This document shows positions 11,305-36,889 of a stretch of DNA of 64,000 nt, piece by piece. This stretch comes from Escherichia coli (GTDB lineage Bacteria > Pseudomonadota > Gammaproteobacteria > Enterobacterales > Enterobacteriaceae), in assembly GCF_003334405.1 (NCBI RefSeq), contig NZ_QOWM01000012.1. One strand, given 5' to 3'. The stretch's first letter is position 1; every line of letters begins with the position of its first letter. A model generated the notes under the pieces. It did not search any database, was not told the origin of the DNA, and worked only from the letters and a program-made list of their open reading frames with translations. The position numbers and the translations under genes are program-made.

Positions 11305-11486
11305 TGATGACTCCGGATAACGATGTCAGGTTATTGGCAAAAGGCGTGCCAATAATTTTTATGTGAATAATCAATAGATTGAAAAATGGGCGGAAAGGCC
11401 ATTTCCGGTCTGGTGGAAATACGCCTGCCGCAGAAAGAACAACACCGCCCGCAGGCGGTGTTGAGACTGATGACAAACGCAACACT

Positions 11487-11585
11487 GCCTGATGCGCTGC
11501 GCTTATCAGGCCTACAAGGTTTCTGCAATATATTGAATTTGCAATATTTTGTAGGCCGGATAAGGCGTTCACGCCGCATCCGGCA
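11487..11585. repeat. REP pair (BIME) between lafA and lafB
   Basis: gcctgatgcgctgcgcttatcaggcctac and gtaggccggataaggcgttcacgccgcatccggca. Confidence 0.7.
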
Positions 11586-12509: not shown

Positions 12510-12554
12510 GATACTGCTCCTTGGGATTAATCGTTTTCGTTTCGATACCCTGTA

Positions 12555-12580
12555 AAAACGACACCTCGGGAGCAAACTTA
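12555..12580 (-). promoter_or_regulatory. possible sigma-28 (LafS)-type promoter of lafA
   Basis: Coding-strand TTAAGTTT-N11-GTCGTTTT about 45 nt upstream of lafA ATG; weak -10 match to GCCGATAA. Confidence 0.25.
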
Positions 12581-12994
12581 AAACCGCCGTTAAAAAAATT
12601 TCACTGCGGTTTATCTGATGCCACTTTTAGCTAAAAAAAGCAGAGTTTAAATTCAGATAAAAAGATTATTAGCAATATCTGCCACATGGCCAGGTATCAA
12701 AATATGTCTTTATCAAACGCTTGATATAGTTAAGATTACCATCAATTAACGCGTTTTCTTCTCAATGTACTGATGCCAAAATTTACATTGCGTTGCAAAT
12801 AGTACACATTTGGCTATTGTACCTGTCCTGTCATTTCGTTACATTTCCACGCCATATAGTGATTAAGAATAATCCTATTACCATAAAATATTAATTATCA
12901 CGCAGAAAAATCATCTTCTCAGGGACGTATAAGACTGTGCTTTATGCAAAGCACTATCAGGAAACATTTATCCCTTGCTAAGGTAAACTCAACT

Positions 12995-13852: not shown

Positions 13853-13889
13853 GCCGGATGCGACGCTAAACGCGTCTTATCCGGCCTAC
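13853..13889. repeat. REP element
   Basis: gccggatgcgacgctaaacgcgtcttatccggcctac. Confidence 0.6.
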
Positions 13890-17210: not shown

Positions 17211-17289
17211 GTTGGATCCTTACCGGTAAATCGTGCCGGTTAAAAGCGGCGTGAAGATGGGGATTCTTAAATTCCGTAAACCGGGTGCC

Positions 17290-17505
<216 letters not shown>

Positions 17506-19796: not shown

Positions 19797-20582
19797 TTAC
19801 AGCGTCTGGCTGATGTACTGCAACATATCGTCCGCCGCCGACACCATTTTGGCGTTCATCTCGTACGCGCGTTGCACCGTAATCATCGCCACCATTTCGT
19901 TGACGATATCCACGTTCGAGCCTTCCAGTGCGTTGTCCTGCAAAGTGCCAAGCCCATCTTCGCCCGGCACACCTTCTGTCGGCTGACCGCTGGCGGCGGT
20001 TTCCAGATACAGGTTGTCGCCCTCGGCGGAAAGCCCCGCCGGGTTGGCGAAGTTAACCAGCGTCAGTTGCCCTAACTCGGTCGCGTCGCTGTCGCCGGGT
20101 AAGATCGCCGTCACTGTGCCATCCTCACCAAACGCGACGTTGGTGGCCCCTGCCGGAACGTCGATTTCCGGCTGCAACGGCAAGCCCTGCGAGTTGGTCA
20201 GCACGCCGTCGGCGTTCACCTGCAAGTTGCCATCGCGGATATAGGCGATATCGCCGTTAGCCTTTTGCACCTGCAAAAATCCCTGCCCCATAATGGCGAC
20301 ATTCATCGCGTTGTCGGTGGTTTCGACGTTGCCTTCGGTGAAGGTTTTCTGGGTACCGACAATGCGCACGCCGCTACCGAATTGCAGCCCGGTCGGCATG
20401 ATGTTGTTCTGGTCGAGCATCGCGCCCGGCGCTTCCTGGGTCTGGTAGAACAGATCCTGAAACATCACCCGGTCGCGCTTGAAGCCGGTGGTATTAACGT
20501 TGGCGATGTTGTTGGCAATCGCGCTCATTTCAGCATCCTGCGCCGAGAGGCCGGTTTTGCTGATCCATAATGCTGCGTTCAT
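19797..20582 (-). CDS. lfgG: distal rod protein LfgG (FlgG-like)
   Basis: 261 aa; N-term MNAALWISKTGLSAQDAEMSAIANNIANVNTTGFK. Confidence 0.9.
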   Translation of the reverse strand: MNAALWISKTGLSAQDAEMSAIANNIANVNTTGFKRDRVMFQDLFYQTQEAPGAMLDQNNIMPTGLQFGSGVRIVGTQKTFTEGNVETTDNAMNVAIMGQGFLQVQKANGDIAYIRDGNLQVNADGVLTNSQGLPLQPEIDVPAGATNVAFGEDGTVTAILPGDSDATELGQLTLVNFANPAGLSAEGDNLYLETAASGQPTEGVPGEDGLGTLQDNALEGSNVDIVNEMVAMITVQRAYEMNAKMVSAADDMLQYISQTL

Positions 20583-20607: not shown

Positions 20608-20650
20608 GGCCGCGGTTGCCGGATGCGGCGTGAACGCCTTATCCGGCCTA
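20608..20650. repeat. REP element
   Basis: gccggatgcggcgtgaacgccttatccggcctac. Confidence 0.65.
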
Positions 20651-22646: not shown

Positions 22647-22732
22647 GCCGGATGCGGCGTGAACACCTTATCCGGCCTACAAAACAATGCAGTTTCATGT
22701 AGGCCTGATAAGCGAAGCGCATCAGGCAATTT
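22647..22732. repeat. REP pair
   Basis: gccggatgcggcgtgaacaccttatccggcctac ... gtaggcctgataagcgaagcgcatcaggc. Confidence 0.65.
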
Positions 22733-23457: not shown

Positions 23458-23888
23458 CAGGCTTCTCCCAGTTTCAGCAAACTTTGCTGCATACTTTTCA
23501 CGTTGTTGAGCACATCGACATTGGTTTCGAAATCGCGCGAAGCCGACATCATGTCCGCCATCTGTTCCACCACGTTGACGTCGGGATACCAGACATCCCC
23601 GTTAGCATCCGCCAGAGGTGAATGCGGTTCATAGCGTTTCACCGCCCCGCCGGTTTGCAGCACGTCCTGCACCTGCACGCTGGCAGCGTCAATGGCATGA
23701 CGATGTGTACCCGCCAGCAAGCTGTGGTGATACACCGCCGCAAACACCGGGCTGCGCGCTTTATACGCCTGCGCCTCGCTACCGGCAGGCGCCTCGGCGT
23801 TCGCCAGGTTACTGGCGACGGTATTCAGGCGAATGGTCTGTGCCGTCATCGCCGAGCCGGAAATCTGATAGATATCAGTAAATGACAT
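23457..23888 (-). CDS. lfgC: rod protein LfgC (FlgC-like), apparently intact
   Basis: 143 aa; N-term MSFTDIYQISGSAMTAQTIRLNTVASNLANAEA. Confidence 0.9.
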   Translation of the reverse strand: MSFTDIYQISGSAMTAQTIRLNTVASNLANAEAPAGSEAQAYKARSPVFAAVYHHSLLAGTHRHAIDAASVQVQDVLQTGGAVKRYEPHSPLADANGDVWYPDVNVVEQMADMMSASRDFETNVDVLNNVKSMQQSLLKLGEA

Positions 23889-23890
23889 GC

Positions 23891-24226
23891 TTATTTCCCT
23901 TCAATGGCCTCTCTGATGCCGCTGATTTGCAGATTCAGAAAGGTCAGACTGCTTTGATAATCCATACTATTTTGTGAAAACCGCGCCTGTTCGCTGTTCA
24001 GCTCCACGGTGTTGCCATCTTCCGACGGCTGCATCGGCACGCGGTACTGGACATCCACCGCCGCGTTATTTGCCCGTTGCATCTCCCTGGCAAAATCAAT
24101 ATCTTTAGCCTTGAAATTTGGCGTATCGACGTTCGCCAGATTCGCAGTCAGTAGCTCGGTCCTCTCAAGACGTAACTTCACTGCCTGCGGATGTACTCCC
24201 AATGCCTGTTGAAAACTGATCCCCAT
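23891..24226 (-). CDS. lfgB: rod protein LfgB (FlgB-like)
   Basis: Start set at MGISFQQALGV (RBS AGGAG upstream); ...LTANLANVDTPNFKAKDIDFAREM aligns to FlgB. Confidence 0.85.
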   Translation of the reverse strand: MGISFQQALGVHPQAVKLRLERTELLTANLANVDTPNFKAKDIDFAREMQRANNAAVDVQYRVPMQPSEDGNTVELNSEQARFSQNSMDYQSSLTFLNLQISGIREAIEGK

Positions 24227-24262
24227 TTCCTGCGTCACTCCTGCTTCAATCCGCATACGCTA

Positions 24263-24278
24263 AGCAATCGCCGTGCCA
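24263..24278 (-). promoter_or_regulatory. sigma-54 (-24/-12) promoter of lfgB operon
   Basis: Coding strand TGGCACGGCGATTGCT: GG-N10-GC with TGGCAC and TTGC elements, ~35 nt upstream of lfgB ATG. Confidence 0.55.
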
Positions 24279-24307
24279 TTTTTTAAGTGACTGATGAGAA
24301 AGGGTTT

Positions 24308-25045
24308 ATGAGTTTTCAATTTTGCAGGCGGAAGTTTTATTTCCTCCTGGCGCTGGCCTTACCGGGCTACGCCGCCGTCCACCCCGTGCAGCACAGCGCG
24401 CGGGAACAAGTCAACGCCCAGGTGCTGAATGCCGCGAGCCAAAAAATTGAATCGCTGGCGCAACAGCGGCAGTGGCATGACTATCACTACACCTTTAAGG
24501 TCTACATTCCCTCGCAGATTGCGACCGCCGCGCCCTGTGCGACTACACCCGGCGTTACGCTCACTTCGCCTGCGGAAATCGCCCTCAACCGGATGAACTT
24601 CACCGTCAGTTGCCCGCAAAGCTGGCAGATGAACGTGGCGGTGCGCCCGGATGTGCTGGTGCCGGTGGTGATGACAAAGTCACTGGTTGCCCGCGATACG
24701 CCGCTCACGGCAAATGATGTGGAGTTGAAGCCCTACAACGTCAGCGCCCAGCGCAGGGAGGTGTTGATGGAACTCGATGACGCGATTGGTTTCAGCAGTA
24801 AACACGCGCTGCAACCAGGCAGGCCAATCACCAAAGAAGAGCTGGTGTCTCCGGTGCTGGTCGGGCGCGATCAGCCGGTGATGATTGTTTACCAGAGCGC
24901 GGGGATCACCGCCTCGATGCCCGGCGTGGCGCTGAAAAATGGTCGCAAAGGCGAGATGGTGAAAGTGCGTAACGCCAGCAGCCAGCGGGTCATCAGCGCG
25001 ATGGTGGCGGAAAGCGGCGTGGTGACAACGGTAAGCGCGGAGTAA
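24308..25045 (+). CDS. lfgA: P-ring assembly chaperone LfgA (FlgA-like)
   Basis: Divergent from lfgB; signal peptide, SAF/FlgA-type C-terminal domain; start set at MSFQFCRR. Confidence 0.75.
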   Translation: MSFQFCRRKFYFLLALALPGYAAVHPVQHSAREQVNAQVLNAASQKIESLAQQRQWHDYHYTFKVYIPSQIATAAPCATTPGVTLTSPAEIALNRMNFTVSCPQSWQMNVAVRPDVLVPVVMTKSLVARDTPLTANDVELKPYNVSAQRREVLMELDDAIGFSSKHALQPGRPITKEELVSPVLVGRDQPVMIVYQSAGITASMPGVALKNGRKGEMVKVRNASSQRVISAMVAESGVVTTVSAE

Positions 25046-25069
25046 TTTGCGCTGGCGATTAAAGTTTTG

Positions 25070-25096
25070 CCGCCTGTTAACCGCTTTACCGGAGTA
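25070..25096 (+). promoter_or_regulatory. possible sigma-28 promoter of lfgMN
   Basis: TAAAGTTT (exact -35 consensus) -N11- AACCGCTT, ~30 nt upstream of lfgM ATG. Confidence 0.35.
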
Positions 25097-25125
25097 ACCC
25101 ACCCAAATACCGAGACGAGGTTGCG

Positions 25126-25404
25126 ATGAAAATCACCCCGACTATGCCAGGCAATCGCCCAACAACCACAACGGCAGGCTCCAGCCAGCCGCGCAAAACC
25201 ACGGCGACCACCACCACGACGCTGAGCGCCGACGACATTACTCAGGCGGGATTGCAGTCTGCCCAGCAAACGCTGAACGACCAGCAAGAGAGCGATATCG
25301 ACAGCAACAAAGTGGCGCAAGTGCAGGCGATGCTGGCGTCCGGCAGCCCGCAAGTGGACACTGAACAGTTAGCCAGCGACATGCTGAGTTTTTTCCAGAA
25401 CTAA
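25126..25404 (+). CDS. lfgM: anti-sigma-28 factor LfgM (FlgM-like)
   Basis: 92 aa, unstructured N-terminus, small acidic protein preceding flgN-like gene. Confidence 0.65.
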   Translation: MKITPTMPGNRPTTTTAGSSQPRKTTATTTTTLSADDITQAGLQSAQQTLNDQQESDIDSNKVAQVQAMLASGSPQVDTEQLASDMLSFFQN

Positions 25405-25416
25405 GAGGCCGATGAA

Positions 25417-25845
25417 GTGAGTATCCGGTTACAACAGGTGAAGGCGTTGTTGCAGGGAATTCGTGACGACGACGCGCTGTATGATTCCCTGCGCGAACGT
25501 CTCCAGCGCCAGCGGATCTGCATGATTCGCCGCGCCAGCGAGGAGTTGCTGGCGGTAAACGATGAGATTACGCATCACTATGAGCAGTTACACAGCCATA
25601 GCCATCAGCGGCATAGCCTGCTGAAAATGCTCGGTGTTAGCGTAAATCGTGACGGTCTGGCGCAGGTGTTTGCCTGGCTTCCGGCGGTACAAAAAGCGGC
25701 AGCACAACAATTGTGGCAACACCTTGAGCAAAAAGCGGAACGCTGCAAAGCCTACAACGATAAAAACGGCGAGTTGTTGATTCGCCAGTATGAATTTATT
25801 CAGTCGTTTTTAGGCAGCGAAGCAGATTTTCTGTATCAGGAATAA
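25417..25845 (+). CDS. lfgN: export chaperone LfgN (FlgN-like)
   Basis: 142-aa helical protein downstream of flgM-like gene. Confidence 0.65.
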   Translation: MSIRLQQVKALLQGIRDDDALYDSLRERLQRQRICMIRRASEELLAVNDEITHHYEQLHSHSHQRHSLLKMLGVSVNRDGLAQVFAWLPAVQKAAAQQLWQHLEQKAERCKAYNDKNGELLIRQYEFIQSFLGSEADFLYQE

Positions 25846-25922
25846 CGACAATACCTTCCCCCATCGCGGAAACGGATTTTCCGCCTGATTGCCAATCCCT
25901 TGTTTTTGACTACAAAAAATCC

Positions 25923-25938
25923 CGGCACGCTTATTGCA
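25923..25938 (+). promoter_or_regulatory. sigma-54 (-24/-12) promoter upstream of unknown gene
   Basis: CGGCACGCTTATTGCA: GG-N10-GC, one mismatch to TGGCACG-N4-TTGCA; ~35 nt upstream of ATG 25973. Confidence 0.5.
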
Positions 25939-25972
25939 CATCCTGCACAGCATTAAAGACTGGAAGCCACCT

Positions 25973-26902
25973 ATGAGTTTTATTGAATGTTACGAACCGG
26001 AATACGTGCGCAATTTTATGACGCAATACCCCGGTTCGCCTTTATACGTCCGCAAGGTGTGGAAAAACGAGATTCGCCTGAGCCTGATGCTGACAGAGCC
26101 AGAAAGCTGCGAAGCGATGCTCAACGATGTCAGGGCCTTTGATTTACAGCTCACCTACCGTCCTGTGGAAGAAAATGCCGCAGAGCTTTCCGCGCGCGAT
26201 GCGATAGTAAACCAGGTGATTTTGAGTACCCTCACGCTCCGTGATTTAACACCAGAACTGTCATTGTATGCCGTCGGTATCCTGCTCTCCCGCGCCAGTA
26301 AAATGCCGGGCAGAGACGGAGATATTCTTGCCCGTTTGACGACGCTGCCGCAGGCGCTGGCCGATCATGCGAAAAAAGGCATCCTACAGGCACAGTTCGC
26401 CCAGCTGCCGCCCGTGCCACAGCTGGTGCGTCACCTGGCCACGTTACTCGGGAGTTTTACGTTTGACTGGTCGATTTTGCCGGAAAGCCCGCGCAAAACT
26501 TCGCTGCCGTTGCAGATGCCTTTGCTGACGCTGCATGACGCTAACAGCGAAGCCCTGTTACAACAGCAGCTTCAGACGCAGTGGCAAACCACCTGGCAAC
26601 AGCATTTTGCCACCGCGCCCTGGATGATGCGTAACTGGCTGATTTACCGCGTTTACCACGATGTGATTGGGCAGACTGACGGGGCGGATTATTTCCCGCT
26701 GGTGTGCGATTTTTATCTCCTCCGCACGTTAATCAGTTTATGGACGCTGGATGGTTCTTCGCTGCGGCAGGAGGATATTTTCGCCCTCTTTGCCATGTTT
26801 GAACGCTGGCGAGCCAGTGAAAATGCGCTGTTGGTTCGCCAGCAAATTCAGTCGTTATGTGCCGCCGACCCGCTGCTTTCAGCGTTTTCGCTGCTAACGT
26901 GA
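25973..26902 (+). CDS. hypothetical protein (309 aa) of the Flag-2 embedded modification module
   Basis: ORF with RBS GGAAG, start MSFIECYEPEY; no motif I can recognise; preceded by sigma-54 promoter. Confidence 0.6.
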   Translation: MSFIECYEPEYVRNFMTQYPGSPLYVRKVWKNEIRLSLMLTEPESCEAMLNDVRAFDLQLTYRPVEENAAELSARDAIVNQVILSTLTLRDLTPELSLYAVGILLSRASKMPGRDGDILARLTTLPQALADHAKKGILQAQFAQLPPVPQLVRHLATLLGSFTFDWSILPESPRKTSLPLQMPLLTLHDANSEALLQQQLQTQWQTTWQQHFATAPWMMRNWLIYRVYHDVIGQTDGADYFPLVCDFYLLRTLISLWTLDGSSLRQEDIFALFAMFERWRASENALLVRQQIQSLCAADPLLSAFSLLT

Positions 26903-27080: not shown

Positions 27081-29525
27081 ATGCCAACACCAACCATCAT
27101 CAAAACACTCAACACCCACCGCGAAAAACCGTTTGTCAGCGTCGTCACGCCAACCTGGAACCGCGGCGCATTCCTGCCGTACCTGCTCTATATGTACCGC
27201 TATCAGGATTACCCGGCAGACCGCCGCGAACTCATCATCCTCGACGATTCCCCACAAAGCCATCAACACATCATCGACCGCCTGACCAATGGCACGCCGG
27301 AAGCCTTTAACATCCGCTACATCCATCACCCGGAAAAACTGCCGCTGGGCAAAAAACGCAACATGCTCAACGAACTGGCGCGCGGCGAATACATCCTCTG
27401 CATGGACGATGACGACTACTACCCGGCAGATAAAATCTCTTACACCATCGCCATGATGCAAAAACACCGGGCGCTCATCTCCGGCTCCGATCAGATCCCC
27501 ATCTGGTACAGCCACATCAACCGCATCTTTCAAAGCCGCAGCTTTGGCCCGCATAACATCCTCAACGGCACCTTTTGCTATCACCGTAACTACCTGAAAA
27601 AGCACCGTTACGACGATGATTGCAATTTAGGCGAAGAGAAACGTTTCACCGACAATTTCAGCGTAAACCCGCTGCAACTGCCCGGCGAGCGCACGATTCT
27701 GTGTATCTCGCATAGTCAAAACACCTTTGATAAAGATTTTATTCTCGGGGCCAGCACGCCAGTAAACGCGGCGCTTACGGATATCGTCCGCGATCCGCTG
27801 CTGCGCAATGCTTATCTGAGTCTGCATAACGCCACTCATCACCAGGCGATCAACCATCAGGCGATCGATCAGATCGTTCTGCTGAATCTGGATAAACGCC
27901 CGGATCGCTTACAACAGATCCGTGAAGAACTGGCATTGCTGCATATTCCACCTGAGAAGATCACCCGCCTTGCCGCCAGTGAAGATGAAAACGGTCAACG
28001 GGGCCGCCGTCAGTCGCACTTACAGGCGCTGCGCCTGGCGCAACAGCACGGCTGGCAAAACTACCTGCTGCTGGAAGATGACGCGGTTATTCTCAAGCAG
28101 GAGAAACATATTCAGGTACTGAACACGCTGCTGGCGAGCCTGGCGAAAATTCCCTGGCAGGTGATGATCCTCGGTGGCGAAATTTCGCAGGGAACGATGC
28201 TAAAAAGTTTGCCGGGGCTGGTGCACGCGCGGGACTGCCGCAAAGTGTGCGCGTATCTGGTGAACAGCCGCTACTACCCGCAACTGGCGCAGCAGATGAG
28301 CAACGATGAGCACTCGCTGGAAGCCTGCTGGCAGCCGCTGCTACGCGCCGACAAATGGCTGGCCTGTTACCCGAGCCTTTGCTACCAGCGACCGGGTTTT
28401 AGTGATATCGAGAAAAAAACGACTGATAATATTGCTCACTATTTCAATAAGTTACCCGTAGCCACCAAGCCATCTACATTACCCATCGCCGATACCATCG
28501 GCTTTTTTATGGAAACCTCATTCCACTACACGCTGTACCGCCCAATCATCACCGCTCTACAGGCGCAGGGGCAGAGCTGCACACTAGTGATCAATGACCG
28601 CGTGTTTAAACCGTTTCTTGATGAGATGCTGGAAACACTGAAAAACATCGACGATCCGCAGCTTAAAGGTATGCGTCTGTCAGAAATGCAGACACATGGT
28701 CAGCGGGTGAAATGCCTGGTCAGCCCCTACCACACGCCTGCGCTCAATGGCCTGGCGGCGGTGAACATCCGCGCTATGTACGGCTTAGCCAAAGAGACGT
28801 GGAACCACGCCGACTGGAATCGTTTTTACCAAAGCATTTTGTGTTATAGCCACTACAGTCAGCAGGCGCTGGCGCATTTCGGCAGCGCAAAAGTGGTCGG
28901 CAACCCGCGCTTCGACGCCTGGCATAACGGCACGTTCGATCGCGCGTTGCCGGAAAACATCCAATCAGATTACCGTAAACCTACGGTGCTCTATGCCCCA
29001 ACGTTTAGCGCATTAAGCTCCCTGCCCCACTGGGCTGAAAAATTGGGCCGCTTGAGCGGTGATGTGAACCTGATTTGCAAACTGCACCATGGCACCTGCT
29101 CACGCCCGGAAGAAGCAGCATCGCTGGCCCTGGTGCGCAGGCATTTAAAACAGCGCACCGACTCCGCCCGCCACACGCTGGCGCTGCTGGCAAAAGCCGA
29201 TTACGTGCTGACCGATAACAGCGGGTTTATTTTCGATGCTATCCACGTTGATAAGCGGGTGATCCTGCTCGACTTTCCGGGCATGAATGATTTGCTCGAC
29301 GGTGAGAAAAGTTATTCCACGGCAGAGAGCGCCGACCAGCGAATCCGCGAAATATTGCCGGTTGCTCATGATGTTGCAGAACTGCGTTATTTGTTGTCAG
29401 AGGCGTTTGACTGGGGGTCGGTGCAGGCGCGGCTTACGGAGATTCGCCATCACTATTGCGATGCGTTTATGGATGGCAAGGCGGGAGAACGGGCGGCGAT
29501 TGTGATTGTGGAGGCGCTGGGGTAA
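27081..29525 (+). CDS. three-domain glycosyltransferase / glycerophosphotransferase (GT2-like + GT25-like + TagB/TagF-like)
   Basis: N-term GT-A signature VSVVTPTWNR...ILDDSP...CMDDDDYY (DxD); central domain IVLLNLDKRPDRLQQIREEL... resembles family-25 transferases; C-terminal ...VLYAPTFS...KLHHG...VLTDNSGFIFDAIHVDKRVILLD resembles CDP-glycerol glycerophosphotransferases. Confidence 0.8.
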   Translation: MPTPTIIKTLNTHREKPFVSVVTPTWNRGAFLPYLLYMYRYQDYPADRRELIILDDSPQSHQHIIDRLTNGTPEAFNIRYIHHPEKLPLGKKRNMLNELARGEYILCMDDDDYYPADKISYTIAMMQKHRALISGSDQIPIWYSHINRIFQSRSFGPHNILNGTFCYHRNYLKKHRYDDDCNLGEEKRFTDNFSVNPLQLPGERTILCISHSQNTFDKDFILGASTPVNAALTDIVRDPLLRNAYLSLHNATHHQAINHQAIDQIVLLNLDKRPDRLQQIREELALLHIPPEKITRLAASEDENGQRGRRQSHLQALRLAQQHGWQNYLLLEDDAVILKQEKHIQVLNTLLASLAKIPWQVMILGGEISQGTMLKSLPGLVHARDCRKVCAYLVNSRYYPQLAQQMSNDEHSLEACWQPLLRADKWLACYPSLCYQRPGFSDIEKKTTDNIAHYFNKLPVATKPSTLPIADTIGFFMETSFHYTLYRPIITALQAQGQSCTLVINDRVFKPFLDEMLETLKNIDDPQLKGMRLSEMQTHGQRVKCLVSPYHTPALNGLAAVNIRAMYGLAKETWNHADWNRFYQSILCYSHYSQQALAHFGSAKVVGNPRFDAWHNGTFDRALPENIQSDYRKPTVLYAPTFSALSSLPHWAEKLGRLSGDVNLICKLHHGTCSRPEEAASLALVRRHLKQRTDSARHTLALLAKADYVLTDNSGFIFDAIHVDKRVILLDFPGMNDLLDGEKSYSTAESADQRIREILPVAHDVAELRYLLSEAFDWGSVQARLTEIRHHYCDAFMDGKAGERAAIVIVEALG

Positions 29526-35516: not shown

Positions 35517-36503
35517 TCAGGAGAAAACTTCGATACCTTGCTTGCGCATGGAGGCCAGTCGATAGCGCAGTGCGCGCGGGGTAATGCCTAACAGGTCGGC
35601 GATTTTGCTGCGGTTGCCCTGATATTTACGCATCAGGTCAGCGATATATTGATACTGGGCGCTTCGTCCGTGCTGGCCCAAATCGCTGGTTTCGGCAATG
35701 TGGACGGCGGGCTGAACAGGCCATTGCAGTTCGCTGCGGTCGGCAACGTCCGTTTCCGGCAGGCCTAAGGCATCCGGGTAAATCACGCCGTCGCGATTTA
35801 AAATCATTCCCCGCTGAATGGCGTTCTCCAGCTGGCGCACGTTGCCGGGCCAGCGGTAATTGAGCAGCGCCCGGCGGGTAGATTCTGAAAGGGTGATATT
35901 TTTCACCAGCACCGTGGAGTACTTTTTTATAAATGACTCTGCCAGCGGAATAATATCGTTCAGACGTTCACGCAGTGGCGGCATGGTAATAGGAATAACC
36001 GCCAGACGATAATAGAGATCTTCACGAAAACGCCCGGCAGCCACTTCCTGTTCAAGGTTTTTATTGGTGCAGGCAATCAGGCGAAAATTGAGTTTAATTT
36101 GTCGGTTGCTGCCTAATCGCTCAACCTGTTGCTCCTGCAATACGCGTAATATTTTGGCCTGTAGCGCCAGCGGCATATCGCCAATTTCATCGAGTAATAA
36201 GGTGCCGTTATTCGCTAGTTCCATTTTTCCTGGCACACTGGCAATTGCGCCGGTAAATGCGCCTTTGTCGTAGCCAAATAATGTAGCTTCCAGCATGTTT
36301 TCCGGGATCGCTGCACAGTTCACGCCGATATAGGGCGCGTTATCATTTTCACCAAAGGCTACGGTGTGAATATATTTCGCCACGCATTCTTTGCCCGCGC
36401 CGGTTTCGCCCTGAATGAGCACCGGCACGTTAAATGCGGCGACACGCTTTGCCAGAGTAAAAGCGTTAATGCTGGAAGCGGCAGTTGCAATAAGTTCAGA
36501 CAT
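35517..36503 (-). CDS. lafK: sigma-54-dependent transcriptional activator LafK (no receiver domain)
   Basis: 328 aa: AAA+ domain with GETGAGKE Walker A, GAFTGA sigma-54 contact motif, C-terminal HTH. Confidence 0.85.
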   Translation of the reverse strand: MSELIATAASSINAFTLAKRVAAFNVPVLIQGETGAGKECVAKYIHTVAFGENDNAPYIGVNCAAIPENMLEATLFGYDKGAFTGAIASVPGKMELANNGTLLLDEIGDMPLALQAKILRVLQEQQVERLGSNRQIKLNFRLIACTNKNLEQEVAAGRFREDLYYRLAVIPITMPPLRERLNDIIPLAESFIKKYSTVLVKNITLSESTRRALLNYRWPGNVRQLENAIQRGMILNRDGVIYPDALGLPETDVADRSELQWPVQPAVHIAETSDLGQHGRSAQYQYIADLMRKYQGNRSKIADLLGITPRALRYRLASMRKQGIEVFS

Positions 36504-36626
36504 AGGGTGAACGATATCAGTAGCGACAGAAAACAGGATATTGTGAAGCGTATCACCGGCGGGATTAACAAGTTCGAATTAAACGATAATAAAAATATTA
36601 TTTTATGGTAAACAATGAGTTATCCA

Positions 36627-36710
<84 letters not shown>

Positions 36711-36889
36711 GGTTCGTGCAATGTGTTATGACGATGCCTGATATCTAGCCCTTTAATAATTTAATTATTTTTTCATCCTATTAATAATTTGCCCCTTTCA
36801 CTCCCCCTCTATTTAATACCTCACCTTGTGTCACTGCCGGATTTGCGTGCACAAAATCGCCCATACCATTACAGCAGAGAAAGTAAGCC

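Follow-up and report, generated by a model that had tools for sequence, protein, structure and literature searches.

A conserved sigma-54-type promoter in front of the Flag-2 rod/hook operon of Escherichia coli and a candidate upstream operator for LafK

The rod/hook operon of the E. coli Flag-2 locus begins with lfgB and is preceded by what sequence, position, orientation and conservation together indicate is a bona fide sigma-54-type promoter. Overall, the data are best explained by a class-2 promoter that would be served by LafK and sigma-54 and would carry a candidate enhancer repeat further upstream, a reading that we consider likely. Such a promoter is to be expected in a lateral-type flagellar locus, and its kind is already known. 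What is added here is comparative proof of the promoter, a resolved start codon for lfgB and a candidate LafK box tying together three operons.

The DNA analysed (the window, 64 kb in length) is a segment of the E. coli chromosome in which the Flag-2 locus, a lateral-type, secondary flagellar system, is present from lafU to lfhA. A RefSeq-annotated locus with an identical region (L001) displays the gene order: lafS...lafB, lafA, lafZ, lafW and lfgL...lfgB, then the divergent lfgA-lfgM-lfgN, a variable region, lfiJ...lfiE-lafK and the divergent lfiM...lfhA. The window is collinear with L001 and has retained lafT and lafU on the left side of lafS, where L001 has an IS5 element. Among the reading frames examined, those of lafK, lfgA, lfgB, lfgC, lafB, lafS, lafT and lafU are open. 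LfgB scores 105 bits against the NCBIfam model of FlgB (TIGR01396, cutoff 59). A 3-kb query around the promoter finds matches in 1280 of 5426 complete E. coli genomes, 1250 of which cover at least 80% of the query. The coordinates of all features discussed below are collected in Table 1.

Table 1. Promoters, repeats and genes of the Flag-2 locus discussed in the text (positions in the window; C(-12) and T(-26) denote bases of the sigma-54 site).
Feature	Position	Strand	Remarks
lfgB sigma-54 core promoter TGGCAC-GGCGA-TTGCT	24263..24278	-	GG = -25/-24, GC = -13/-12
Predicted +1 of lfgB	24252 (about)	-	placed 12 nt downstream of C(-12) at 24264
Predicted 26-nt 5' leader	24227..24252	-	AGGAG at 24242..24238, 11 nt before ATG
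Upstream in-frame ATG, longest ORF (121 aa)	24254..24256	-	at -4..-2; judged not the start
lfgB, FlgB-family proximal rod protein, 111 aa	23891..24226	-	first gene of lfgBCDEFGHIJ
lfgA, FlgA P-ring chaperone	24308..25045	+	divergent from lfgB; 5' end holds enhancer candidate
Conserved spacer block CATCAGTCACTT + AAAAAA	24279..24296	-	A-tract 24284..24279, just upstream of -26
lfgB repeat GGAGGAA-ATAAAAC-TTCCGCC, candidate LafK enhancer (UAS)	24327..24347	-	centre ~-85
lafB repeat ACCGGAAA-TGGCC-TTTCCGCC	11389..11409	-	non-coding; centre ~-74 of lafB promoter
hyp1 repeat CGCGGAAA-CGGAT-TTTCCGCC, perfect 7+7	25865..25885	+	non-coding; centre ~-74
Sibling sigma-54 site TGGCACGCCTTTTGCC	11336..11351	-	33 nt from C(-12) to lafB (fliD) start; 14.9 bits
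Sibling sigma-54 site CGGCACGCTTATTGCA, one mismatch	25923..25938	+	36 nt from C(-12) to gene at 25973
lafK, receiver-less sigma-54 activator	35517..36503	-	presumed activator of lfgB, lafB and hyp1 promoters

The first-pass annotation of this DNA had reported a near-perfect -24/-12 site at 24263-24278 and had read it as a sigma-54 promoter directly upstream of lfgB. The site, TGGCACGGCGATTGCT, is confirmed at exactly these positions. It lies on the minus strand, which had been left unstated, and reads 5' to 3' from 24278 to 24263. All 11 specified positions of TGGCAC-N5-TTGCW are matched, the GG-N10-GC spacing is formed by GG at 24277/24276 and GC at 24265/24264, and the extended sigma-54 consensus (G at -20, T at -11) is fitted as well. 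This is the sole exact TGGCAC-N5-TTGCW match in the window. Scored with a weight matrix built from the orthologous sites, it reaches 31.3 bits, the top score in the window and far above all else.

Taken on its own, the bare consensus match is not significant window-wide. Under a dinucleotide-shuffle null, a window is expected to hold 0.18 exact matches, and one or more turned up in 17 of 100 shuffles. The match becomes meaningful because of its position: the site sits between lfgB (minus) and lfgA (plus), inside their 81-bp gap and in the correct orientation, with the conserved ATG at 24226 following C(-12) at a distance of 38 nt, and on the correct strand of this 81-nt gap the chance expectation is only about 1e-4. 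Loose matches are uninformative, since the window holds 27 sites with up to two mismatches versus 46.8 expected by chance (that is, fewer). A scan of 24100-24450 for sigma-70-like promoters returned none, including for lfgA, and an Rfam search of 23700-26100 found nothing relevant.

Given the modest window-wide statistics, conservation across orthologous loci is the decisive evidence for the promoter. Eighty such loci were fetched by LfgB alignment, with one genome per species, and 9754 stretches of 100 nt from the same loci served as controls. Within the 100 nt upstream of lfgB, the best site matches at least 9 of 11 positions in 79/80 loci, at least 10 in 71/80 and all 11 in 42/80 (the loci are phylogenetically related, so these counts overstate the number of independent events); the corresponding frequencies in control stretches are 2.6%, 0.28% and 0.02%. 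The site is found in Escherichia, Citrobacter, Yersinia, Pantoea, Erwinia, Enterobacter and Mangrovibacter, and also in Serpens, Pseudomonas flexibilis, Methylomonas and Neptuniibacter. Depending on the locus, C(-12) lies 31 to 85 nt ahead of the start codon. lfgA is the divergent neighbour of lfgB in 75 of them; in Methylomonas and Neptuniibacter lfgA is not adjacent, yet the motif stays with flgB. Together with its position and orientation, this pattern supports the promoter assignment of the first-pass annotation.

Two in-frame ATG codons, at 24256 and 24226, are available to lfgB. The downstream codon had been proposed as the real start on the argument that the upstream one would leave essentially no leader. 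This argument can be refined into a stronger one. By the established sigma-54 numbering convention, transcription would begin near 24252, so that the ATG at 24256 would lie upstream of the predicted +1 and outside the predicted transcript. The protein comparison points the same way: the N-terminus MGISFQ or M[GSA]I[ST]F is present in 13 of 17 aligned homologues from many genera, and the 10-residue extension from ATG 24256 aligns with nothing in these 17. At the DNA level, the upstream ATG is confined to the Escherichia/Pseudocitrobacter group and missing from Citrobacter and the others; loci of Escherichia, Pseudocitrobacter, Citrobacter and Phytobacter share the AGGAG box and the spacing of 38 nt between C(-12) and the downstream ATG. 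The 111-aa LfgB is also the RefSeq/PGAP call, which already uses ATG 24226, and the call in strain 042 (CBG33098.1), and it is found on at least 1000 contigs. On this comparative basis the translation start is ATG 24226 (MGISFQ...), and the 121-aa LfgB annotated on 461 contigs (e.g. that of E. coli H605) is a probable mis-start.

These data bear directly on the possibility that the motif is a chance match, with lfgB transcribed from a promoter further upstream and translated from ATG 24256. Chance alone would give 0.18 exact matches per window, and some records do carry the longer protein. Nevertheless, a site occurs in nearly every orthologous locus at a frequency far from that of the controls (79/80 versus 2.6%), the interval 24100-24450 holds no sigma-70-like promoter, the N-terminal extension is not conserved, and ATG 24256 is just 51 nt away from the start codon of lfgA. 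The comparative data effectively refute this explanation, to which we assign a negligible probability.

The ortholog matrix, together with a search of all Flag-2 operon fronts for GG-N10-GC, recovered two sibling sites. The first-pass annotation had cited one of them, a second sigma-54 motif at 25923-25938, which is indeed present, on the plus strand, with one mismatch. It precedes a gene at 25973 (hyp1, beyond lfgN) whose product is distantly similar to the flagellin lysine-N-methylase FliB and which is followed by a glycosyltransferase gene. The other, uncited earlier, lies in front of lafB, with which the run lafBCDEF-lafS(-lafTU) begins. The product of lafS scores 416 bits against the FliA/WhiG model PRK12427 (cutoff 339). 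As the lafB site heads lafBCDEF-lafS, lafS would itself come under sigma-54 control, and the earlier proposal of a cascade from LafK/RpoN to LafS/sigma-28 gains support.

The presumed activator of the three sites is intact. LafK (328 aa) opens directly with the sigma-54 interaction domain (Sigma54_activat, PF00158, E 8.6e-64, residues 6-172), carries the GAFTGA motif at residues 81-86 and ends in a Fis-type helix-turn-helix (HTH_8, residues 284-317). Its description as receiver-less is borne out: the AAA+ domain begins at residue 6, and no receiver domain is present. The nearest solved relatives are FlrC, NifA, NtrC1, FleQ, FlrA and PspF.

The scans revealed no convincing sigma-54 site or inverted repeat ahead of either lafK or lfiM. 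A candidate sigma-54 site for lfiM at 36423-36438 (plus strand, 8/11) was rejected, as it falls within lafK and some 450 nt away from lfiM, and a dyad-like match at 36633 proved to be a REP element. The intergenic region between the two genes (386 nt) is AT-rich, with 35-40% GC versus 54% for the window, and contains REP elements. With regard to the later step of the cascade, a sigma-28-like box pair, TWAAG-N15/16-(G)CCGnTTTA, can be seen by eye upstream of lafA, lfgK and lfgM; no sequence in the window matches the enteric sigma-28 consensus TAAA-N14-17-GCCGATA.

A second element accompanies the promoters. An inverted repeat, GSGGAA-N-TTCCSC, was spotted by eye in printed upstream regions of the orthologous loci, where it precedes the -24 element by about 50 nt, and it also came to light through the non-coding copies at the sibling promoters. 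Enrichment of 8-mers upstream of the promoter across loci did not rise above coding-region controls, and k-mers conserved at the protein level dominated. In the window, GGAA-N7-TTCCGCC occurs exactly three times versus 0.04 expected, a count reached by none of 100 shuffles; with up to one mismatch there are nine copies versus 1.67 expected. The three exact copies, at 24327-24344 (minus), 11389-11406 (minus) and 25868-25885 (plus), each lie upstream of one of the sigma-54 sites (those of lfgB, lafB and hyp1, respectively) and in the same orientation as the promoter. The hyp1 copy is a perfect palindrome, GCGGAAA-CGGAT-TTTCCGC, and the lfgB copy overlaps codons 7-14 of lfgA (RRKFYFLL, in the signal-peptide region). 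TTCC ends 51 nt from T(-26) at lfgB and 40 nt from it at both lafB and hyp1. The repeat centres, at -85, -74 and -74, are thus one helical turn apart. Combinations of dyad and sigma-54 site number four in the window versus 0.18 in shuffles; the fourth is weak and lies inside lfgG.

The repeat recurs across the orthologous loci. A strict GGAA-N5-8-TTCC ending 48-55 nt from T(-26) is present in 60 of the 80, and in 58 of these 60 the distance is 51-54 nt. Matches of at least 11/14 to GCGGAAA-N5-TTTCCGC occur in 65% of lfgB upstream regions versus 3.7% of control stretches. In addition, the loci contain 17 further dyad-promoter modules, with gaps of 40-41 or 49-52 nt. Most of these are located beyond lfgN, about 1.7 kb from lfgB and on the opposite strand; those of Citrobacter, Phytobacter and Pseudocitrobacter thereby occupy a position corresponding to that of the hyp1 module in the window. 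In the modules the half-sites are conserved and the spacer is free to vary. Methylomonas shows a half-site variant, GCGGAAA-N4-TTTGCCGC.

Metagenomes were also scanned, using the flgB2 motif of Vibrio parahaemolyticus. This returned five loci, one of them genuine (L086); the other four were dismissed as chance matches, and one of these (L085) looks eukaryotic. In the genuine, Vibrio-type locus the motif is followed by lfgB and lfgC, and LfgB of the window is 51% identical to the lfgB product there. Its inverted repeat, CCGGAAGtttggCTTCC, ends 41 nt upstream of T(-26), with further half-sites upstream. The two classes of offset, 40/41 and 51-53 nt, again differ by about one helical turn.

We read the upstream inverted repeat as probably the docking site (upstream activating sequence, UAS) of LafK, because it is symmetric over about 19 bp, keeps a phased distance, accompanies three promoters and coexists with a sole sigma-54 activator that has a dimer-type helix-turn-helix. 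A point against this reading is that centres at -74 to -85 are near the lower limit of the distances typical of such activators. The fuller proposal, which we hold with slightly more belief than doubt, is that GCGGAAA-N5-TTTCCGC (core GGAA-N7-TTCC) is an undescribed LafK operator, or 'LafK box', conserved from Vibrio to Enterobacterales and defining a regulon of three operons. Our literature search found no mention of a LafK binding site or box; older Flag-2, Vibrio and Aeromonas studies fell outside the search, so an earlier description is possible. Likewise, the E. coli Flag-2 sigma-54 sites may already be listed in the founding Flag-2 paper. If the proposal holds, the direct LafK regulon would comprise the lfgB operon, the lafB...lafS operon and the modification operon with the FliB-like and glycosyltransferase genes. 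In addition, the signal-peptide codons of lfgA would be dual-use, serving both as coding and as regulatory sequence.

A competing account would keep the sigma-54 promoter and deny the repeat its role as a LafK site. That is, the lfgB copy would simply reflect the signal-peptide codons of lfgA, and the non-coding copies would be weak terminators or sites of another regulator such as LafZ (CadC/ToxR-like). A protein constraint could account for part of the conservation at lfgB, as the dyad there always falls within lfgA codons and in the same frame (xGG AAG ... TTC Cxx). Yet the residues encoded there vary by clade (RRKFYFL, GKQFFP, RKPSFP) and GGAA and TTCC persist. The distance of the dyad to the promoter is fixed at 51-54 nt while the inferred lfgA start, judged by eye, shifts from about -33 in Escherichia and Citrobacter to about -17 in Yersinia. 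Given the varying residues, an offset that is steadier relative to the promoter than to lfgA, and two copies in the window (of three) that are non-coding, a pure coding constraint is unlikely.

The same account draws on the lafB copy, which was flagged as a weak terminator-like hairpin of 6 pairs with the tail CCCATTTTTC. However, lafA already has its own strong terminator (11463-11440) upstream of that dyad, the hyp1 copy has no T-tail, and the hairpins fold no better than shuffled sequences (z -0.8 to -1.7). The dyad also always follows the orientation of its promoter and is found in the Vibrio-type locus. With regard to LafZ, a symmetric 7-5-7 site fits a dimeric helix-turn-helix, whereas winged-helix proteins of the ToxR type usually read direct repeats. 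Weighing these points, we regard the alternative to a LafK site as unlikely.

The spacer between the repeat and the promoter is itself partly conserved. An anchored profile of 73 distinct Enterobacterales sequences shows a block, tcatg..gtTaaAAa, at -43 to -29. A relaxed WWTCA-N5-TTA is found in 46 of these 73 spacers. An IHF-assisted promoter was considered and set aside, the strict IHF consensus WATCAR-N4-TTR being present in only 4/73; the block in the window, CATCAGTCACTTA, misses the first position of that consensus. By eye, the lafB spacer contains TAATCAATAGATTG, and A-tracts also precede the lafB and hyp1 sigma-54 sites. The block might represent intrinsic curvature, a weak IHF-like site or signals of the lfgA 5'-UTR, and together with the A-tracts it may help bending.

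A mechanism can be proposed along these lines. RNA polymerase with RpoN would settle on the -24 GG and -12 GC elements as a closed complex, unable to open by itself. The C-terminal helix-turn-helix of LafK would bind GGAGGAA-N7-TTCCGCC about 85 bp upstream of +1, inside the first codons of lfgA, and LafK would reach the polymerase by looping of the spacer with its A-tract. ATP hydrolysis, coupled through the GAFTGA loop, would then open the promoter. As LafK has no receiver domain, its activity would presumably depend on how much of it is present or on a partner protein. The lfgB transcript would start near 24252, with a 26-nt leader carrying the AGGAG box, and would be translated from the ATG at 24226. 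The sibling modules, with the repeat one helical turn closer (about -74), would drive lafB...lafS and the flagellin-modification-type operon. In this way, LafK and sigma-54 would switch on LafS (sigma-28), which in turn would serve the sigma-28-like promoters of lafA, lfgK and lfgM. The analysis establishes the sequence, position and conservation of the site, the association of the repeat with the promoters and the integrity of LafK; the transcription start, dependence on RpoN and LafK in E. coli and recognition of the repeat by LafK are predictions.

How often this promoter is used in E. coli is a separate matter. In EC958 (ST131), LafA and Flag-2 motility were undetectable under the laboratory conditions tested (PMC4637896), and this silence, seen in one strain, suggests that the lfgB promoter may rarely fire. 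According to a passage in PMC6993521 that cites the finding, strain 042 and K-12 have an inactive Flag-2 because of a frameshift or deletion. Combined with the IS5 element beside lafS in the related strain of L001, such reports would suit a promoter that is an evolutionary relic, intact in sequence within a Flag-2 system permanently silent in E. coli, so that the motif would now serve no purpose in the strain analysed. Several features argue otherwise. The locus is complete from lafU to lfhA in the window, with the examined reading frames open, and about a quarter of complete E. coli genomes (1280/5426) keep the region. The promoter matches 11/11 positions and has been kept, together with the dyad, across genera, which indicates ongoing selection. 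Silence in the laboratory would also be expected if lafK itself were uninduced. We consider a relic improbable, more so than a repeat unrelated to LafK.

The preferred reading, a functional promoter under LafK and sigma-54, changes how the system might be approached. Since LafK has no sensory domain and the AT-rich region upstream of lafK has no sigma-54 site, the question 'when is Flag-2 on?' would become 'when is lafK made?'. The candidate LafK box would make the silent Flag-2 of E. coli experimentally approachable. The system concerned is present in roughly a quarter of complete E. coli genomes and in many other Enterobacterales.

A close comparison is with the lateral flagella of V. parahaemolyticus. 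The promoter of flgB2 (VPA0264), ATGGCACGTATCTTGTTTG, is bound by RpoN in electrophoretic mobility shift assays (PMC9817140). It stands at the front of the orthologous operon and belongs to class 2 of the LafK/sigma-54 hierarchy, and the E. coli motif, ATGGCACGGCGATTGCTTA, is nearly the same, with a -12 element (TTGCT) closer to consensus than that of V. parahaemolyticus (TTGTT). The Vibrio-type locus has the same GGAA-N7-TTCC dyad at 41 nt, whereas the E. coli dyad, at 51 nt, lies one helical turn further away. As summarized in a passage of PMC4481668 that refers to Stewart & McCarter 2003, LafK of V. parahaemolyticus is the sigma-54-associated master regulator of class-2 lateral genes, including the sigma-28 gene. 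In Aeromonas hydrophila, whose lateral hierarchy was followed with PflgB, PfliM and PlafA reporters, mutation of lafK lowers the activity of the lateral PflgB from 970 to 20 Miller units (PMC5013049). The lafK gene of this species is reported to be sigma-70 dependent (PMC4481668), and the front of E. coli lafK likewise shows no sigma-54 site. A difference concerns fliM: PfliM of A. hydrophila is LafK-dependent (PMC5013049), whereas neither a sigma-54 site nor a dyad was found at the front of E. coli lfiM.

Beyond flagella, LafK has been placed in one group with PspF and HrpRS, that of activators with no signal domain (PMC3162934). PspF of E. coli, like LafK, consists of an AAA+ domain and a helix-turn-helix, with no sensory domain. 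The pspA promoter combines a receiver-less activator, a close UAS and a bend in the spacer, and the architecture proposed for lfgB resembles it in placing a dyad UAS no more than about 100 bp from the -24/-12 elements. The two differ in the recognition sequence, in that Flag-2 has no evident PspA-like negative regulator, and in that a strict IHF site is not conserved.

Finally, flgB genes of other flagellar systems offer a useful contrast. The polar flgB of Vibrio, with the site TTGGCACGCTAATTGCTTT, is also of the sigma-54 type (PMC9817140). It is served by FlrC/FlaM with sigma-54. In both the Vibrio polar and the E. coli primary (flag-1) systems, flgB likewise heads the rod/hook operon. The flag-1 flgB operon of E. 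coli is a class 2 operon that depends on FlhD4C2 and sigma-70. Thus, one E. coli cell carries two flgB-type operons under unrelated promoter classes.

A third σ54 promoter module (that is, a σ54 site preceded by the inverted-repeat dyad with a GGAA-N7-TTCC core, the candidate LafK enhancer) lies immediately 5′ of lafB (fliD), which heads the gene run containing the σ28 gene lafS. Its σ54 site reads TGGCACGCCTTTTGCC, and its spacer holds TAATCAATAGATTG, a match by eye to the IHF consensus. The lafB site was absent from the first-pass annotation. A fourth, weak module is found in coding sequence inside lfgG, ~500 nt upstream of lfgH. Here, the dyad GCCGGAAATCGACGTTCCGGC is good and stands 33 nt before the σ54-like TGGCACAGTGACGGCG, which scores 8/11 with a poor -12 region. 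The phase of this module is out of step with the other three dyad/σ54 modules, and it may represent a chance occurrence or an internal promoter.

The gene behind the second σ54 site is distantly related to the flagellin lysine-N-methylase FliB and is followed by a glycosyltransferase gene. Loci of Citrobacter, Phytobacter and Pseudocitrobacter have a counterpart, in the corresponding position, of the dyad and σ54 module that precedes this FliB-like gene. It therefore appears that flagellin-modification genes in the variable region share class-2 regulation (i.e. at the LafK/σ54 level). The upstream regions of lafA, lfgK and lfgM share a σ28-like box pair, TWAAG-N15/16-(G)CCGnTTTA. Nothing in the window matches the standard enteric σ28 consensus (TAAA-N14-17-GCCGATA), and the three box pairs are possibly LafS-specific class-3 promoters.

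Features of the Flag-2 locus and related loci
Feature	Position	Strand	Remarks
σ54 site, lafB	11336-11351	-	
Dyad, lafB	11389-11409	-	
σ54-like site, lfgG	20106-20121	-	
Dyad, lfgG	20152-20172	-	
FliB-like gene	25973-26902	+	42.6 bits, under the cutoff of 85
Glycosyltransferase gene	27081-29525	+	814 aa
σ28-like box pair, lafA	12553-12581	-	
σ28-like box pair, lfgK	17241-17270	-	
σ28-like box pair, lfgM	25060-25088	+	
In-frame GTG, lfgB	24236-24238	-	Four codons 5′ of ATG 24226; overlaps the AGGAG box (GGAGTG)
REP/BIME-type repeats	11572-11584, 13853-13865, 17294-17497, 20618-20630, 22647-22659, 29603-15, 36649-36688		Gaps lafA-lafB, lafZ-lafW, lfgJ-lfgK, lfgF-lfgG, lfgD-lfgE, lafK-lfiM
REP pair	36627-36730		Middle of the lafK-lfiM intergenic region
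Variant repeat, Methylomonas (L075-L077)	~81 nt upstream of T(-26), the first base of the σ54 core		GCGGAAA-TTTT-TTGCCGC

Regarding the start of lfgB, the in-frame GTG is probably irrelevant because it leaves no room for ribosome-binding site spacing and is unused in homologues. Alignment gives LfgB a length of 111 aa in E. coli versus 115-116 aa in other genera, a difference due to an internal deletion of 4-5 residues after residue ~54 (ANN-----AAVD) rather than to the start position.

Among the orthologous loci, those of Pseudocitrobacter faecalis and P. vendiensis (L002, L005) encode an LfgB that shares 100% identity with the E. coli protein. Their regulatory region is also nearly identical, including the non-start ATG, which suggests that Escherichia and Pseudocitrobacter exchanged Flag-2 recently. 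An enterobacterial-type Flag-2 lfgA-lfgB-lfgC region, whose LfgB has 80% identity to the E. coli protein, occurs in an assembly labelled ‘Chryseobacterium sp. 18061’ (L018, CACSKA010000002.1) that is probably mislabelled or contaminated. In Methylomonas, where flgA is not adjacent, a variant repeat upstream of a σ54-type flgB promoter could be an equivalent activator site with one diverged half-site.

Many Flag-2 intergenic gaps hold REP/BIME-type repeats, and in the lfgJ-lfgK gap a 118-bp repeat-associated indel separates the window from strain ECCTRSRTH03. Between lafK and lfiM (36504-36889), no σ54 site or dyad was found before either gene, the flanks are AT-rich (35-40% GC versus 54% in the window) and a REP pair occupies the middle. 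Together, these features suggest that the top of the E. coli Flag-2 hierarchy is non-σ54 and possibly silenced. In this respect, the front of E. coli lfiM differs from that of A. hydrophila, in which PfliM is LafK-dependent.
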